DNA of 64,000 nucleotides. It comes from Myxococcales bacterium. Its GTDB lineage: Bacteria; Desulfobacterota; Binatia; HRBIN30. Where the stretch lies: the NCBI GenBank assembly GCA_037445065.1, contig JBBILD010000007.1, positions 128,001 to 192,000 on the forward strand, in the 5' to 3' direction. Position numbers: made by a program. The first letter of the stretch is position 1; each line of letters begins with the position of its first letter. Below are positions 15,001-27,000 of this stretch, piece after piece.

Positions 15001-18000
15001 GCGGGGGCACTTGGCGATCGAGGACTTCACGCCACAGGCGATTACGGATCCTGCGGTGCTGCAACTGGCGCAGCGGGTAGTCTGCCTGCCGGATGCACAG
15101 AGCCGGTACCCACGGTACTTCGATGGGCGGGTCCGCATCGTCCTCCGTTCGGGCGAGGTGTACGAGCAGGCCGAACCGATCAACCGGGGCCACCCCGAAC
15201 GGCCCCTGTCGCAAGCAGAGGTAGAAGCCAAGTTCCGCGACAACGCGCTTCGTCTCCTGTCGGAACGCAACACTGAGCGGGTACTGCAGTGGCTTTCGGT
15301 GTTTCCGCAGCATGAGTTGGTTGCGCATCTTACCCGCTGGCTACGATCTTCGCGCCGCAGGGAGCTGCGGCGCTAAGCCCGACGCTTGCATGCCTGTCCC
15401 GATTCGCGTGCCGTTTTACCCGCACCTCCGTGCCCATGAGCTGCTGAGTTGCGAGGGCGAGGCCATCCACGACGGCGGCTATTTCTCCCTCGCCGAGCGC
15501 ATGACCTCCGAGCCTGTGCTCGTTCGCTTTGCACCCCGCGATGGCTGGGTCTTGGACGCTGGTTGCGGTGGGGGACGCTGGCTGCACCGCTTGCAGAAGG
15601 CTGGTTGCCGCGTCCTGGGCATGGACTTCGCTGCTGATGTCCTGGGAGCGGTACGCCAGCGCTTGCACTCGGTGCCCTTGCTGCGCGGGCGGGCCGAGCG
15701 GCTGCCCTTTGCGAGCAACTCTCTGGCCGGCATTGTGTCGCTGGGGGTCGTAGAACACGACCCAGAAGGTCCGCAGCGGTTTTTGCGCGAGTACGCGCGC
15801 GTACTGCGCCCGGGCGGGCGGCTGCTCGTTTCTGTGCCGTACAACAACGGCCTGCGGCGGCTTTGGTTCAATCACCGGTATCGGCGTCGCGATCGGCGAC
15901 TTTCTGGAGAAGCGTACCAGTTCGTCGAGTACCGCTTCTCCCGGCGCGAGATGGAAAGCGAGCTCGTGCGATCGGGTCTGGTGCCGATTGCCTGCTGCCC
16001 GCACGACTTTTACCCTCCGTTGAACATGTCAGTGGTCGCCGATCAAAACATGCTCGCCATCCGCTTCGAACGAACCGCGGCTGGCTATGAATTGCGCTTG
16101 CCCCCCACGCGTTCCTGGGAGCTATCCGGTTGGTGGAGGCTGCTCGTGGGCGGGCTGTTCCGGGTATCGCCATGGATGGTTACTGCCGAGATTCTCGTGG
16201 TCGCAGAGAAACGCGAGGTGCTTTCCTGAGCCGGGCTGCACTGGCTCCTGCGTGTGCGCACTAGTCGCGCTCGTTTTCGCTCGGGACGGAAAGCACGCTG
16301 GAAGATAGGAGGACCGTGTTTCGCAGACGCGAAGCATGCGCGGGAACTTGCTTTCAAAGCAGCGTCGGTGAGGCACAGCGTGGGCGATGCGGGTGAGCGA
16401 AGCACAGGGGGACGGAAAGAGCTGCCTTCCACCGGGTGGCCGCGCCAGGGCCCAAACAATTGCCGGCCGCTTCCTGCTGGTTTTGTTGGGCCTGACGAGT
16501 GGTGTTTTGCTGTTAGAGGCGTCCCTGCACCTCCTTGCTTGGCGACTGGGGCGAGACCCCACGCCCGTCCTTGCTGGTCAAGGAAAGACGGTGCTGGTTA
16601 CCGTTGGCGATTCGAACACGTACGGCTTGTACCTGAGGGAAGAAGAGGCCTACCCGGCGGTTCTCTCCCGACTTTGGCGAGACCATGGAGGACGACCGCC
16701 ATTGGCGGTGGTCAACTTGGGTTATCCGGGAATGAATTCCACATTGCTGGCATCGCAGTTTGGCCGGGTCTTGCAGGAGCTTCGCCCGCGGGTGGTTACC
16801 CTGATGCTCGGGGTCAACGATTTCTGGACGATCCCCATGCCCGCACGGGGAGAAGATGCGGCTGTTGAACGGCTGAGGCGTTGGTTTTGGCAGCATGTGC
16901 GCACGTACCGCCTGTTGTACTTTCTGTTTCGTTCGGCCGAGTTGCACCTGGCGCAGGTGCCACAAGATTTGCGAAGGGTGCGGCCTGGAGAGTTCTTCAC
17001 CCGCTGGTCATCTCGTGCGCGTGTGGGCGAGACGGAGTTGCAGTTGGGCTTCGAAGTGGACGCTGCGGCTGAGGCCCCGGCGTCCGTGCGGGAGACGACA
17101 TTGGCTGCAAACCTCGCTGCGATGGTCGAGGAGGCGCGCCGCAGCGGAGCCTGCGTGTTGTTGCTGACGTATGCGGCCGACGGTGGGCTGTATTGGCTCG
17201 CCAATCAGACCGTCCGTCGCCTGGCGGGCGAATTGGGCGTGGGGCTTGTGGATCTCGCTTCCACGTTCGCACCGCGTTGCCCGGTCCGTGTTGAGGGGAG
17301 CTTGGTTCAAGCAAAGTCGCATTGCCCTCAGTATTTGTTCCCGGACCAACACCCGACCGCGCTAGGGCATCGCGAAATCGCACTGCGGTTATTGGAGCCC
17401 GTTCGCTCGTGCTTGCGGTAGGTCTGCGGCGTTCGCGGCGAGAGCCCGAGCGCGACTCGGCGGAGCTGTGGATGGCTCGGGATGTCCGCGGGTGCGCGAC
17501 GGCCCCCGGGCAACTGGAGAGCGCACGTCCTGCCGTGATCTCATTTGGCTGCTGTATGCACCGGCAGGGTGAAGCGGCCAGACAAGCCCCCGCTCGGGGT
17601 CCCGGTGCGGCGTACTCCCCGAGGCTCCTGTCGGAGTTCCTCAGCGGTCCGTTGTGAATGACTGCGAAGCGTCCCGGAGCGAGCGGACCCGTGACGGGGC
17701 GGGTTATACATCCGCCCTCCGTTCTTTCGGCGCGGAAAAAGGGCCGCTCCAGTGCCGGCTACGGGGCTGCTCCCGAGTGGCACTCCCAGCAGGGCCCCCG
17801 CCAATCATCGCCAACGTTGGCCGGGTGCTCGAACTCGAGTCCTTCCTCGCTGCTGGCGAAGCGTTTTTCGCCGGGCGGGCCTTGCGCCAGCACGACGTGG
17901 CATAAGTTGCAATCGCTGCGAATCATGCGGCCGTCCTCAGCTCGGTGGTTTCCAGCATGGCAGCGCATGCAGCCTGGCCAGAAGAGGTGGCTCGAGTGAT

Positions 18001-24000: not shown

Positions 24001-27000
24001 AACAGCCGATACCGGGAATGAGCGGCCCTCGGCGTGGCAAACCAGGCAAGCCTCCACACCGGTTGTGGTGGTCTGTGTATCGGCATGCGCTTGCGACGCG
24101 GTGGCGTCGTGGCACGAGGTGCAGGCTGCGGTGATGGGACCAATGCGCCCGCCTTCCACCTCGTTGCCCGTGGTGGGATCGAGATGGGCGCGCCGCGTCC
24201 CGAGCGCGGTGCCGGGGAAAGGCGGCAGGGTGTAGGTGCCGGGCAAGTGGCAAGTGCGGCAGTTGCGCCGATCGCCCGGGAACAAGACTTCCGAGAAATC
24301 GAAGCGAGTGAAGTTCTGTGGCGGCGGGCCGAAGCCATACACGACGTACGGCTTTTGGTGGAGTTCTTCGCCGGTGTGGATTTTGTGGATGAGCACCTTG
24401 AAGTCGATGGTGGCGGTTTCTTCGCTAGCGGCCACGGCCGCGGGGTCGCGGCGGCGCCGTGCGGCGTCCGACTGGTTCGGGTTGTGGCAAACGACACAGG
24501 CCTCCAGCGTATTGCGCAGGTTGCCGTGCACGCTGAAGTCCACGGAGAATTGTCCGTGGCATGAGGCACATTGCTCGTCGCCCACGACCTCTCGCCGTGC
24601 TACCGGGGCTGAGCCATCCACAGTAAACGTCACGAGCGTATTCGGGGCTGCTTCCTGGACCACCTTGGGTTGAATCGGATCCACCGCGCTCAAGGTGACT
24701 TGCCGCCGGGCTTCGCTCACCACCGCCCATGTGCCGGTGGCCGAGGCGGGAATCGAGAACGGCACGGAGTAGCGGAACGTCCCGGACGCATCCGGACCTT
24801 CCACGGTCCCACTCGCGCCGCCGCCTGCGGCAGTGGCCACGAGCATCTCGGTGTAGTCGGTGGTGGGGCCACTGAACGTGAAGGCCAGCCGATTGAGAGA
24901 GGCGAGGCTTTGTAAGGGCGTCCCGGCCTGGTCGGTGACGCGGAAGGAAACAATGGGCGACTCGCCAGCGTTGTGGTTTTCGAGGCCGGTGATTTCGACA
25001 CGGAGGCCGTTCAACTGACGAGAACGCCCCGGCACTACGTGGGCCCCGGCAACCGACACGTCGAACTCTCTACCCGAGTCCGGTTCGTGGCAAAAGCCGC
25101 AATCGCCGTCTTCGAAGCCGCGCGCCTGGAAATGGTTGTGACCCGGTGGGCCCGCATCGCTGGCGCTGGAAGAGGGATTGACGTCATCGTGGCAGGCAAC
25201 ACAGGCTGCCGTGCTGGGGCGAGTGCGGTGGTAGTCCGCGGTGGGACCTTCGGCATGACAGACGGCGCAGTTCTCGATGGCTCGCGGAAAGCCCACGCCG
25301 GTGATCCGGCCGTCTTGTTCCTTGCGCGCAAACACGATGTCTTGACGCAGGAAACTGCTGTAAATCGCGTAGCTCGAACCAGGAGCACCGTTAACGATCG
25401 AAGGCAGTTCCTTTCCCCGGTGGATTTTGTGCACCATCACTCCGAGGTCCACGCTGCGGCCGCGCTCGTCAGTTGCCTCTTGGGTGTGGCAAACGGTACA
25501 GAGACGGAGTTCGCGGCGGTTACCGTGAGCCACCAGGGGATCATGGCACGCGTTGCATTGCGACGTGGTAGACCCGGCTCGGATCACCGGTGGAGAGCCG
25601 TCAGGAACGAAGTCGAACACCGGGTTTGCGGCCCGTTGTACGCCGTCGAGGAGGCGGTCCACCTGCATGCCGACGCTGTAAGTGGCGCCGCTGTTCACAG
25701 GAGCGAAGGTCTTGCGGAAGGTGTACTGGTAAAGCCCGCGAGCAGCGTCAATGGTGGCAAGCGAGCCGCCGGAGTCGTAAGCCGGGCGCGTGCGGTTGAT
25801 CTCGTTCACGTAGCGGGTGAAACGCTGGTGAAACTCGCCGCCACCATCGTATTCTTCGACCCGCGCGAGCGTGAAGCGTACCCGCGCGAGAGACGGATCC
25901 TGGGTCGCAGACAGCACCGGGGTGAGCGGAGCTCCCTGGTCGTCTGTGAGGGTGAACAGCACGCGAAGACTGCCGGCTTCGTCGAAATTCGCAGCGACCA
26001 CGGCGGCCTTGACCCCGGATCCAACCGGCGTCGGCATTGGTGGCAAGGTTGGCGAGGGAAGCGTTGGCGTCGCAGTGGCGGTGGGTGGCGGTGCGGTCGG
26101 GGTTTCCGTCGCAGTCAGAGTCGGCTCTGTTTCCGGGGTGGTCGGCAACGGGGTTGCCGGGCAGCCCGTGAGGGCCTGATTCACGAGCACAATGAGTTCG
26201 TCAACCGTGATGTTTCCGTCGCCGTTGAGATCGGTGCTGGGGCAGCACGTGCTGGGGGGCAGCTCCTGAAGCGACACGTTCACGGCGCACAGGACTTCGT
26301 CTACCGTCACCGAGCCGTCCTCGTTGCAGTCCCCGGGGCATTGTGCCCGCGCGCTGGCACCCGCGATCAGCGCGGCAAACGCCAGCAGTCCAGTGAGCAT
26401 AGAGCAGCGAAGCAAATAGTTTCTCATCTCCGACCCCCTTCGTTTGGCATCGCTTCATCGCAGGGCGCGCCTTTTGTTCCCTTGCCCACGACCCGAGTAT
26501 CCTCCGGTGTGTGACTCATGCCTTGAGCTTCCACAACCAGGAAAACTTGTGAAGCGGTGTACTGTATTTCTTCTCTTTCGATGTTCAGAACACCTTGGAA
26601 TTCTGGTAAGCAGCGCGTGTGATGAGGAGCGGGGCTTGGGTCGTTGCGCTAGCCTCGGTGGCCTTGCTCTGGGCGGTACCGAGCCACGCCTTGCGTTGCG
26701 CAGGGGACTGCGACGGGGATGGTGCGGTGACAGTCGAGGAGCTGGTCACGGCTGTGGCGATTGCCCTGGGCGAGCAGTCCGGAAGCAGGTGCCTGGCGGT
26801 GGACGGCAATGGCGACGAGCAGGTGACCGTGGACGAGATCGTGCGCGCGGTGCGCGTTGCGCTCGAGGGATGCCCGCAACCGATTGTGTACTACGACCGA
26901 GACGACCCGCGCCGCACGAACCCCTTCCCGGATGACTTTTGGCTGGTCGAGGACGCAGCGCAGCGCACCGGCGTACGACTGAATGTGGCAGCGCCGCCGG

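Follow-up and report, generated by a model that had tools for sequence, protein, structure and literature searches.

The window analysed here is a 64,000-nt stretch of DNA from an uncultured Binatia bacterium. Positions 17759–26427 carry seven genes on the minus strand, and the features of the locus are as follows.

26428–26618: divergent intergenic region of 191 nt, presumed operon promoter (by position only)
23983–26427, minus strand: g13 (g01413), OmcA/MtrC-family decahaem cytochrome, 814 aa (ORF)
26128–26349, minus strand: dockerin-like module of g13, residues 27–100 (sequence reading)
22569–23999, minus strand: g12 (g01412), predicted outer-membrane beta-barrel of an unannotated family, 476 aa (ORF, AlphaFold2)
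21925–22572, minus strand: g11 (g01411), 7-haem lipoprotein cytochrome, 215 aa (ORF, CxxCH)
21608–21931, minus strand: g10 (g01410), 2-haem lipoprotein, 107 aa (ORF, CxxCH)
21018–21608, minus strand: g09 (g01409), 4-haem soluble periplasmic cytochrome, 196 aa (ORF, CxxCH)
19261–21021, minus strand: g08 (g01408), 18-haem lipoprotein, 586 aa (ORF, CxxCH)
17759–19264, minus strand: g07 (g01407), ImcH-type inner-membrane cytochrome, 501 aa (ORF, CxxCH/CxxxCH)
17696–17718: GC-rich hairpin, possible terminator (consensus scan, pattern match only)

All six junctions between the seven genes overlap (17, 4, 7, 1, 4 and 4 nt from g13 to g07), which bears out the tight seven-gene operon described in the initial annotation. 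The operon is flanked by a divergent gene at 26619 (plus strand) and a convergent gene at 16387–17421 (plus strand), and the unit therefore consists of exactly seven genes. The hairpin has nine pairs, six of them G-C, and lies between the convergent ends of g07 and a GDSL-lipase gene. No sigma-70-type consensus was found by a consensus scan of positions 17300–26800.

From g13 to g07 the genes encode 10, 0, 7, 2, 4, 18 and 6 CxxCH motifs, and g07 has one additional CxxxCH, giving 47 CxxCH plus one CxxxCH for the operon. The 45 haem sites given earlier omit the two sites of g10. In a six-frame count of the 3.79-Mb genome, only 16 frames contain at least two CxxCH and seven contain at least three; five of these seven are in the operon, the same result as reported before. 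This concentration is far beyond chance. The two frames outside the operon encode an ACIII-like pentahaem protein beside a Mo/FeS subunit and a class-I trihaem protein.

g13 consists of a Sec signal peptide, a dockerin-like double EF-hand module, a Pro/Thr linker and an MtrC body with ten CxxCH. Its earlier assignment to the OmcA/MtrC decahaem family holds, as residues 150–810 match TIGR03507 end to end (model positions 4–672 of 672) with 379.3 bits against a cut-off of 209.3. Two stretches match PF22113 (MtrC/MtrF domains II/IV, E 7e-51), and the PDB relatives are MtrF (3pmq, E 4.8e-22), UndA (9.8e-16) and MtrC (9eov, 3.1e-7). The N-terminal module contains two DxNxDGxVTVDE calcium-loop repeats about 33 residues apart and a GC-P end before the linker. 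It had been called a dockerin tag; the double calcium-loop module can be read in the sequence, but the Pfam Dockerin_1 match is below cut-off (E 0.049, 14.3 bits versus 22.9), next to EF-hand at E 0.004 and weak EF-hand and type-I dockerin matches in the PDB (E 0.002–0.9). The same module is found at the N- or C-terminus of 10 ORFs genome-wide, and most g13 orthologues have a lipobox in its place. In this clade the dockerin-like module takes the place of the lipid anchor. Another part of the genome encodes a lipoprotein scaffoldin with three cohesins, to which the module may dock.

g12 has a long Sec signal and matches nothing in Pfam or NCBIfam at E<=0.1, and all of its 62 homologues are unnamed, as was stated before. 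The AlphaFold2 model built here (36 rows) reached pLDDT 79.4 and pTM 0.72, and DSSP assigned 22 strands to it rather than the roughly 24 proposed previously. When the model was compared with 48,161 chains by VIA-align, the top matches were all outer-membrane barrels (Z 18.9–11.8), led by OpdQ of the OprD/Occ family (Z 18.9). MtrB (6r2q_B) ranked 26th with Z 14.8. The barrel fold proposed in the initial annotation is consequently supported, with MtrB among the matches; by VIA-align it resembles generic porins, ushers and TonB-dependent transporters at least as closely as MtrB. A profile of the family collects 173 representative clusters; none is annotated, and some are fused to multihaem domains. 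That g12 is a new porin family is only partly established: Pfam, NCBIfam and the PDB gave no sequence relative, and the Geobacter Pcc/Ext porins are, according to the literature, very diverse, with 18–22 strands.

The three small cytochromes downstream of the barrel are strongly conserved. All 29 aligned g11 sequences share the seven CxxCH, the lipobox Cys20-Arg21 and another six His. g11 has about 31 aa per haem and neither an MtrA/DmsE match nor a close PDB relative. It is the candidate for the cytochrome inside the g12 barrel; modelled without haems, it gave a poor structure (pLDDT 50.8). g10, left uncounted as a cytochrome in the initial annotation, is a dihaem lipoprotein more strongly conserved than any other small component of the operon: all 30 sequences have the lipobox Cys22, both CxxCH, His50 and His69. 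Its 136 homologues are all unnamed and contain no Pfam domain. g09 has a type-I signal peptide, and all its orthologues have a signal peptide without a lipobox; all 27 sequences have the four CxxCH together with His71, His77 and His119, and 26 of them also keep His30.

In g08, a dihaem unit of about 64 aa occurs seven times in tandem ahead of a 4-haem C-terminal core, and the CxxCH spacing alternates between 20–23 and 43–44 residues. A tandem repeat at the DNA level was not found. All orthologues have the lipobox, whereas the number of CxxCH is 4, 6, 8, 12, 16, 18 or 20, and only the C-terminal part (query residues 425–586) is conserved everywhere. g08 is a candidate periplasmic haem wire.

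The barrel was found in 50 of 401 sampled genomes of the class Binatia, so that the earlier figure of 3 of 40 was an underestimate. Nearly all of 30 related loci from a species-representative collection have the genes in the order MtrC, barrel, 7-haem, 2-haem, 4-haem, which extends the gene order noted before from three genomes. The 7-haem gene directly follows the barrel in 29 loci, the 2-haem and the 4-haem genes are each present in 28 and a g08-like gene in 27; MtrC is on the locus in 26 and directly upstream in 23. The loci lacking the 7-haem, 2-haem, 4-haem or g08-like gene (L014, L022, L024) end in or just past the cluster, whereas some of those lacking MtrC have kilobases of upstream sequence (10 kb in L009). 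Haem numbers are kept as well: seven in 28 of 29 proteins, two in 28 of 28, four in 26 of 28 and ten in 24 of 26, the remaining two g13 orthologues being truncated. An MtrC-family gene is present, usually adjacent, in 47 of the 50 barrel-positive genomes. Conversely, the barrel is absent from 36 of 83 MtrC-positive Binatia genomes, and therefore MtrC also works with other partners.

More distant relatives point in the same direction. Another Binatia family has a divergent subfamily of the barrel (E about 1e-30), and all five loci fetched show the order 10-haem, 2-haem, barrel, 7-haem, four of them with the 4-haem gene. Further relatives, which form one clade, carry CxxCH N-terminal to the barrel in the same polypeptide (12 in P0101/P0222, 4 each in P0103 and P0150, 3 in P0110). 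A distant metagenome contig of 39.6% GC (L040) carries the barrel as a fusion with a 12-haem domain and, directly after this gene, homologues of g11 (31% identical, E 3e-34) and g10 (46% identical, E 8e-29). These results indicate that the unannotated barrel and the two small unannotated cytochromes, with seven and two haems, are the conserved core of the conduit.

The same observations bear on whether any cytochrome passes through g12. The barrel could be an ordinary porin or transporter, linked to periplasmic cytochromes by nothing more than a common operon, as its best structural matches are substrate channels (OprD/Occ) and TonB-dependent transporter barrels and the barrel–cytochrome contact is a prediction. 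However, its site between cytochrome genes is invariant in the 30 loci and the five divergent ones, covalent fusions tie distant relatives to 3- to 12-haem domains, and nearly all barrel-positive genomes also have MtrC. Moreover, a cytochrome of the MtrC type at the surface has to be fed with electrons through the membrane, and neither MtrA nor MtrB was found in the genome (no match over cut-off in an MtrA/DmsE-family search). An ordinary porin is thus very improbable.

At the other end of the operon, g07 shows the complete ImcH architecture, with three hydrophobic helices, a CxxxCH at residue 133 right after helix 3 and six CxxCH, in agreement with the description of ImcH in PMC6295460. The architecture agrees with the earlier assignment as an ImcH homologue. 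The matches to PF03264 NapC/NirT (E 4e-10) and NrfH-like (E 3.5e-16) are both below cut-off, and among the 120 listed of more than 3600 homologues, of about 500 aa and from many phyla, none is named ImcH. An ImcH gene is on the locus in only nine of the 30 related loci, and therefore the inner-membrane partner is not a fixed part. The abstract of PMC6295460 states that Fe(III) reducers alone were found to have ImcH homologues, and that these are regarded as quinol oxidases, which favours outward electron flow.

The same machine could also run in reverse and take up electrons from extracellular donors, for instance Fe(II), Mn(II), minerals, reduced humics or another cell as partner. These electrons would go either by way of g07 to the quinone pool or to carriers in the periplasm and the aerobic chain. 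Four genes for haem-copper oxidase subunit I and an ACIII-like complex in the genome show that the organism is an aerobe with oxygen as an available sink; extracellular electron transfer or metal respiration would therefore be at most facultative. DNA matches in subsurface and hot-spring metagenomes, at contig level only, would also suit uptake. Mtr-type porin–cytochrome modules run in both directions, with MtoAB/PioAB as an example. The abstract of PMC6295460 reports CymA and CbcL homologues in both reducers and oxidisers. Against uptake stands the restriction of ImcH homologues to Fe(III) reducers in that abstract. In addition, no Cyc2 or MtoA-type gene was seen, and the MtrA/DmsE-family search gave no match over cut-off. 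The OmcA/MtrC family, moreover, has been characterised as a terminal reductase. On balance, reversed flow appears unlikely, although it deserves more weight than the other alternatives.

We consider it probable that the operon encodes a trans-envelope porin–cytochrome conduit leading from the inner-membrane quinol pool to the surface, most likely for insoluble or high-potential extracellular acceptors. ImcH-type g07 (three TM helices, seven haems) would oxidise quinol, and soluble 4-haem g09 and lipid-anchored g08, whose dihaem-repeat number differs among relatives to give 4 to 20 haems, would take the electrons across the periplasm. The outer membrane would be crossed through the 22-strand g12, which would form a sheath around the 7-haem lipoprotein g11, and the 2-haem lipoprotein g10 would act as an adaptor. 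At the surface, MtrC-type decahaem g13, a lipoprotein in most relatives, would hand the electrons on to Fe(III)/Mn(IV) oxides, humics or partner cells. Support genes are present too, namely CcmE (cytochrome c maturation) and two secretins. Gene content, families, invariant haem sites, signal and lipobox types, barrel fold, synteny and fusions are direct results; the contacts, the cytochrome of the barrel, the membrane side of the lipoproteins, the direction of flow and the acceptor we infer. That porin and cytochromes form a complete route between quinone pool and cell surface is a prediction from sequence and models, and a well-supported one. The earlier claim that every part of an electron-transfer path is present stands on families, synteny and distant fusions, with its details on haems, strands, g10, distribution and dockerin revised. 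That this bacterium respires Fe(III)/Mn(IV) we only infer.

The conduit might instead serve soluble or colloidal extracellular targets, such as electron shuttles, chelated metals, selenite/tellurite-like oxyanions, surface oxygen or reactive species, for redox balancing or detoxification rather than energy-conserving respiration. Such a role would fit an aerobic host, and the widely varying repeat number of g08 suggests tuning rather than a fixed respiratory chain. According to PMC6148476 and the abstract of PMC5877670, the Ext clusters of Geobacter have differing substrates, and ExtI is tied to selenite and tellurite reduction. Yet a set of 47 haems with its own quinol oxidase would be costly for detoxification, and in a Pfam scan the operon showed neither a molybdo-enzyme nor a rhodanese partner and gave no pointer to a soluble substrate. 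The best-known acceptors of MtrC-family proteins are solids. A non-mineral role is therefore rather improbable, less so than an ordinary porin.

Compared with known systems, the proposed arrangement of g12, g11 and g10 functionally resembles MtrA in MtrB and topologically resembles a lipoprotein plug in a barrel. A point against it is that g11 is predicted to be a lipoprotein, unlike MtrA and OmaB, which are soluble in the periplasm. The conduit thus appears as a hybrid, in which a Shewanella-type surface cytochrome and a Geobacter-type ImcH are joined by an unannotated trans-outer-membrane core.

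The seven genes of the operon lie on the minus strand of the window and are listed here in operon order (5' to 3'), with the ORF starts that give the protein lengths of the initial annotation.

Genes of the cytochrome operon and the adjoining hairpin (window positions)
23983-26427, minus strand: g13, MtrC-type decahaem cytochrome, 814 aa
22569-23999, minus strand: g12, predicted barrel, 476 aa
21925-22572, minus strand: g11, 7-haem cytochrome, 215 aa
21608-21931, minus strand: g10, 2-haem cytochrome, 107 aa
21018-21608, minus strand: g09, 4-haem cytochrome, 196 aa
19261-21021, minus strand: g08, 18-haem cytochrome, 586 aa
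17759-19264, minus strand: g07, ImcH-type cytochrome, 501 aa
17696-17718: GC-rich hairpin between the convergent ends of g07 and the GDSL lipase gene

All six junctions from g13 to g07 overlap (17, 4, 7, 1, 4 and 4 nt). The upstream neighbour (26619-28811, plus strand) is divergent, and the downstream neighbour, a GDSL lipase gene (16387-17421, plus strand), is convergent. The overlapping junctions and these flanks indicate that 17759-26427 (minus strand) is one seven-gene unit, as the initial annotation had observed. A consensus scan of 17300-26800 revealed no sigma-70-type promoter site. From g13 to g07 the proteins carry 10, 0, 7, 2, 4, 18 and 6 CxxCH motifs, 47 in sum, and g07 has one additional CxxxCH. 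The initial annotation had counted 45 haem sites, leaving out the two of the 107-aa g10, so its figure is corrected here to 47 CxxCH and 1 CxxxCH. Its statement that the operon holds five of the genome's seven proteins with at least three CxxCH was reproduced by a six-frame scan of the 3.79-Mb genome, which gave seven such frames, five of them here. The remaining two are a pentahaem protein beside a 1018-aa Mo/FeS protein, a pair that resembles alternative complex III, and a trihaem cytochrome of class I.

Several other genes were seen in the window. One gene away from the operon is a 2294-aa ORF (28931-35815, minus strand) with SpvB, TcdB middle/N-terminal, FG-GAP and RHS/YD-repeat domains, which resembles the shell protein of a polymorphic toxin of the Tc/RHS type. 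A wax-ester synthase/DGAT gene adjoining a gene for an AMP-binding enzyme (7660-11284, minus strand) suggests lipid storage, and an HPt/HATPase kinase is encoded together with a 1165-aa WD40-repeat protein at 36663-41878 (plus strand).

g13 is an OmcA/MtrC-family decahaem cytochrome, as first annotated. It matches the TIGR03507 model over nearly its full length (379.3 bits against a cut-off of 209.3; residues 150-810 on model positions 4-672 of 672). PF22113 matches two stretches (E 7e-51), and the ten CxxCH agree with the family's pair of pentahaem domains (II and IV). In the PDB it is related to MtrF, UndA and MtrC. Ten CxxCH are found in 24 of 26 orthologues, and the two exceptions, from loci L020 and L030, are truncated. 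Shewanella MtrC and OmcA carry an N-terminal lipoprotein anchor, and most MtrC orthologues in related loci and in other genera have an N-terminal lipobox and a Pro/Thr linker. g13 has no lipid anchor; a type-I signal (..ASARA-QC) is followed by a dockerin-like module. The same arrangement of an ordinary signal peptide, two DxNxDGxVTVDE loops and a linker is shared by the MtrC of the window's genome with those of the loci L001-3, L005, L017 and L027. The genome holds two secretin genes, and the surface position of g13 is predicted.

The N-terminal module of g13 consists of two DxNxDGxVTVDE repeats beside the linker, in agreement with the duplicated calcium-binding loop-helix segment that type-I dockerins carry at a protein terminus. 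Its score against the Pfam dockerin model (PF00404, Dockerin_1) is 14.3 bits (E 0.049), below the cut-off of 22.9, and in the PDB search dockerins (E 0.15-0.9) and EF-hand proteins (E 0.002-0.1) were all weak matches; for these reasons the module is called dockerin-like. It recurs at the start or end of 10 ORFs, beside Pro/Thr linkers, on contigs C2, C7, C10, C11, C21 and C25 of the same genome. A candidate partner is encoded on C11.

Cohesin-bearing gene of the same genome
C11:104182-106482 (L038:2183-4483), minus strand: cohesin scaffoldin, 766-aa lipoprotein with three cohesins (PF00963, E 2.8e-25) and a long Pro/Thr linker

Cohesin domains were detected in 26 of 26 genomes of the host's family, a presence that fails to separate the lineages with dockerin-type MtrC from those with lipobox-type MtrC. 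Given the ten ORFs, the three-cohesin lipoprotein and the family-wide cohesins, the dockerin label is plausible from context, and in the window's clade g13 may possibly be anchored by this dockerin-type module. Ten module-bearing ORFs and one three-cohesin lipoprotein also amount, in their own right, to a cohesin/dockerin-like display system in an uncultured Binatia genome. The gene divergent from the operon (26619-28811, plus strand) encodes a 730-aa secreted protein that likewise begins with the dockerin-like module and has a serine-hydrolase-like GISQG motif; no Pfam family was found for it, and it is kept in the same divergent position in L001-L003 (69-73% identical).

The barrel g12 had been described as belonging to no family, which agrees with zero matches to Pfam or NCBIfam at E<=0.1. 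A PDB sequence search with the barrel profile returned no relevant relative (the top hit was USP7, E 0.08). The AlphaFold2 model, built with 36 homologues, has a pLDDT of 79.4 and a pTM of 0.72, and DSSP assigns 22 strands to it where about 24 had been given before. When the model was compared with 48,161 chains by VIA-align, all 50 listed entries were outer-membrane barrels, and Foldseek agreed.

Selected VIA-align matches of the g12 model
3t24_A: OpdQ, Z 18.9, rmsd 4.6, 295 aligned
3ohn_B: FimD, Z 17.7, rmsd 4.8, 329 aligned
4epa_A: FyuA, a 22-strand TonB-dependent barrel, Z 17.4, rmsd 4.2, 355 aligned
6r2q_B: MtrB, rank 26, Z 14.8, rmsd 6.4, 341 aligned

As judged from the model, the predicted outer-membrane barrel fold of g12 is secure and shows no special likeness to MtrB. 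The ESM Atlas gave unnamed clusters only; the nearest named family, BBP2_2 (0.92, 164 shared features), is a weak lead.

The four cytochromes between the barrel and g07 are real haem proteins, and chance motifs are excluded. In g11 the seven CxxCH, six more histidines and Cys20-Arg21 at the end of the lipoprotein signal are invariant in all 29 aligned orthologues. Its haem-free AlphaFold2 model (29 rows) is poor, with a pLDDT of 50.8, and a PDB search with its profile gave merely weak nitrite-reductase haem motifs. g10 keeps its lipobox Cys22, both CxxCH, His50 and His69 in 30/30 sequences. g09, which has an ordinary signal peptide, keeps four CxxCH, His71, His77 and His119 in 27/27 and His30 in 26/27. 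g08 is a lipoprotein in which seven dihaem repeats, each about 64 aa long, are joined to a four-haem C-terminal core. No tandem repeat is detectable in it at the DNA level, which indicates that the repeats are old, and a PDB sequence search with g08 returned nothing.

ImcH, as described in PMC6295460, is a protein of 495-519 aa with three N-terminal TM helices, a CX3CH next to the TM domain and six CX2CH. In g07 (501 aa) a hydropathy window on a simple scale places hydrophobic segments at about 13-40, 44-71 and 101-123; the CxxxCH stands at residue 133, ten residues past helix 3, and the CxxCH motifs at 158, 207, 315, 432, 452 and 492. By sequence, then, the predicted architecture of g07 is that of ImcH in this description. 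Around helix 3 and the first haems g07 is NapC/NirT-like (PF03264, E 4.1e-10, residues 104-191; NrfH model, E 3.5e-16), and it belongs to a very large family (more than 3600 proteins at E<=1e-20) that the sources name 'NapC/NirT family cytochrome c'. The initial annotation had put the identity of g07 to Geobacter ImcH at 40%; among the 120 homologues of g07 listed, none is given the name ImcH.

The seven operon proteins were compared by tblastn with 30 barrel loci (L001-L030) from a species-representative genome collection, nearly all labelled Binatia.

Partners of the barrel in the 30 loci
7-haem: 29/30 loci, directly after the barrel
2-haem: 28/30 loci
4-haem: 28/30 loci
g08-like: 27/30 loci
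MtrC-type: 26/30 loci, directly upstream in 23, elsewhere on the locus in L011, L018 and L021
ImcH-type: 9/30 loci (L001-3, L010, L022, L025-28)

Where a 7-haem, 2-haem, 4-haem or g08-like gene is missing, the locus stops inside or just past the cluster (L014, L022, L024). In the four loci without an MtrC match, the sequence before the barrel is shorter than 1 kb in L014 and L019, 3.8 kb in L024 and 10 kb in L009. The haem counts of the orthologues are fixed: seven in 28/29 (L030 is fragmentary), two in 28/28 and four in 26/28, L022 being truncated where its contig stops and L028 lying in a short frame. The g08-like protein alone varies, with 4, 6, 8, 12, 16, 18 or 20 CxxCH, and its C-terminal part (query residues 425-586) is all that the orthologues have in common. 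Across L001-L030 the range of 4 to 20 CxxCH arises as dihaem repeats, about 64 aa each, are gained or lost, the C-terminal core being constant.

In tallies of 401 class genomes, one of them unpublished (G177), the barrel was found in 50, concentrated in five families (17/25, 12/18, 4/5, 6/20 and 9/19), and an MtrC-family gene in 83. When the two lists are read together, 47 of the 50 barrel genomes are also MtrC-positive, usually on the same contig and a few hundred bases apart, and 36 of the 83 MtrC genomes have no barrel. The fifth family has a divergent barrel (E about 1e-30) and shows the order 10-haem, 2-haem, barrel, 7-haem in 5/5 loci fetched, followed by a 4-haem gene in 4/5. Loci of other Binatia families (L041, L042 and L043, from G229, G054 and G204) carry an MtrC-family gene without this barrel. 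The gene is either isolated or accompanied by cytochromes of 9 to 12 haems and a 4Fe-4S protein, and the MtrC neighbours scanned there gave no Pfam match to MtrB.

Beyond Binatia, the barrel-family profile matched 173 of 1.84 billion representative proteins at E<=1e-3, 81 at E<=1e-10 and 27 at E<=1e-30. Most of these relatives have 400-440 aa and align end to end. None of the 47 distant relatives scanned reached the cut-off of a Pfam outer-membrane family, and none of 30 scanned with NCBIfam matched above cut-off, with scattered sub-threshold barrel families only. N-terminal cytochrome domains were found in three of the 47. The CxxCH motifs ahead of the barrel number 12 in P0101, 4 in P0103, 4 in P0150 and 3 in P0110, and these proteins group as a single clade in a quick tree built from 118 members of the family. 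A metagenome scan for the P0079 locus found no relative, and P0222, a fused protein near-identical to P0101, alone gave a locus: a 14.4-kb contig (L040) with 39.6% G+C, against about 65% in the window. On it, a 725-aa 12-haem-barrel gene is directly followed by genes for a 186-aa 7-haem protein (31% identical to g11, E 3e-34) and a 104-aa 2-haem lipoprotein (46% identical to g10, E 8e-29). No MtrC-type gene is present on this contig. Independently of the Binatia synteny, this gene set shows the barrel, the 7-haem and the 2-haem proteins to be a conserved core, and it links the barrel family to cytochromes. It could still be proposed that the barrel is an unrelated porin, an idea that we hold to be very improbable and that is contradicted by the barrel-cytochrome fusions and the synteny. 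Opposite the fused gene (L040:9202-11611, minus strand) are genes for a 3-haem protein of 105 aa and a 13-haem protein of 666 aa. Two further distant relatives, P0082 (414 aa) and P0083 (440 aa), are each on a 43,155-bp contig, possibly one contig; if they share it, their organism has duplicated conduits.

The initial annotation had interpreted the operon as an extracellular electron-transfer path with a new barrel, and this appears largely right once the haem and strand counts are amended. We consider it fairly probable that the operon encodes an outward extracellular electron-transfer conduit, whose contacts, sidedness (of the three lipoproteins) and flow direction we infer. Quinol would be oxidised by the ImcH-type g07, the periplasm would be crossed via g09 and the lipid-tethered, length-variable g08, the outer membrane would be crossed by g11 within the barrel g12, g10 acting as the adaptor, and an external acceptor would be reduced by the MtrC-type g13. 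The known role of the MtrC family points to outward flow. So does the distribution of ImcH, since its homologues are reported in PMC6295460 from Fe(III) reducers only. Caution on the outward conduit comes from the four haem-copper oxidase genes of the genome, from the poor haem-free g11 model and from the presence of the ImcH-type gene beside the core in just 9/30 loci. Inward electron flow through the same conduit, to which the indications from MtrC and ImcH run contrary, has perhaps a minor chance of being correct, and a conduit that serves soluble acceptors or detoxification is less likely again.

A broader reading is put forward only tentatively, and we think it rather doubtful as a whole. 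The barrel with the 7-haem and 2-haem lipoproteins would be an independently evolved trans-outer-membrane conduit, a further class beside MtrAB, Geobacter Pcc/Ext (compared by description) and Cyc2, in which a lipid-anchored cytochrome plugs a 22-strand barrel as a lipoprotein plugs LptD. The outer parts would be interchangeable (an MtrC-type decahaem or a fused 12-haem domain), the periplasmic dihaem-repeat wire would be adjustable from 4 to 20 haems, and in the window's clade g13 would be displayed on a cohesin scaffoldin via its dockerin-like module. If true, a cellulosome-like display system would for the first time be seen to include a redox protein, g13. The Binatia lineage is uncultured, and the window's genome is equipped for aerobic respiration; a conserved conduit in about an eighth of the sampled genomes (50/401) would place Binatia among the mineral electron exchangers of the subsurface and hot springs. 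Because the barrel, 7-haem and 2-haem proteins have no Pfam or NCBIfam model, standard iron-gene surveys based on MtrA/MtrB would see MtrC as an orphan and overlook the conduit. Together with its natural fusions, the triad is a compact minimal module on which electron transfer across a membrane could be tested, and the variable g08-type protein offers a natural series for how the length of a periplasmic wire is set.

The operon shares with Shewanella MtrCAB (6R2Q), together with CymA, an OmcA/MtrC-family surface decahaem, an adjoining large barrel, a small haem-dense cytochrome beside the barrel and an inner-membrane multihaem quinol oxidase, and the logic of both is an insulated haem chain through a barrel. 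They differ in their parts. The barrel here has 22 modelled strands and 476 aa, whereas MtrB has 26 strands and about 700 aa; the inner cytochromes are lipoproteins with seven and two haems, an ImcH-type protein takes the place of CymA as quinol oxidase, and the window's MtrC-type g13 is without a lipid anchor. The MtrA/DmsE decahaem model (TIGR03508) reached at best 19.9-20.2 bits in the genome against a cut-off of 192.2, with no match to g11. The MtrB/PioB model (PF11854) did not match g12 at E<=0.1, and its best score in the genome, on contig C31, was 19.9 bits, below the cut-off of 23. With neither model matched above cut-off in operon or genome, the conduit would work in an MtrCAB-like manner, yet it is not an Mtr system.

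Compared with the Geobacter Pcc/Ext conduits (OmbB-OmaB-OmcB, ExtABCD, ExtEFG, ExtHIJKL), the functional class and the barrel size are the same. The account of Pcc clusters in PMC4245776 gives the porin 18-22 predicted strands, always with an adjoining gene for a periplasmic cytochrome of 5-14 haems and usually with an outer cytochrome; the 22 strands assigned to g12 by DSSP are within this range, and by description the operon would fit the functional Pcc definition given there. ExtB has 18 strands and ExtE 21 according to PMC6148476, which stresses that the different Geobacter conduits are not homologous to one another and notes that their outer components vary. Also shared are small lipoprotein cytochromes in the cluster (ExtC, ExtD and ExtF in PMC6148476), variable outer components, and ImcH as the inner-membrane partner in that organism group. 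Unlike those conduits, the window has a Shewanella-type MtrC surface cytochrome, and its ImcH-type gene is inside the operon. The cytochrome adjoining the barrel is here a predicted lipoprotein (g11, Cys20 invariant), whose 7-haem gene follows the barrel in 29/30 loci and which may lie on either side of the membrane.

Cyc2 has a single haem and a smaller barrel. The distant g12 relatives fused to domains of 3-12 haems resemble such fused porin-cytochromes, among them the 10-haem GM18_3465 of Geobacter sp. M18 (PMC4245776). The window's barrel is unfused, and the fused g12 relatives hold their haems in an N-terminal domain, whereas those of GM18_3465 sit in loops, by the description in PMC4245776. 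No published account of this cluster, or of electron conduits or extracellular electron transfer in Binatia, was found in the abstracts and text passages of the literature searched, and for one Binatia genome PMC12482716 lists only unrelated iron-gene matches. The core that would cross the outer membrane, made up of the barrel and the lipoproteins with seven and two haems, is unannotated. The operon combines this core with a Shewanella-type surface cytochrome and a Geobacter-type quinol oxidase, to which the window's clade adds an expanded dihaem-repeat wire and, possibly, a dockerin-type anchor.
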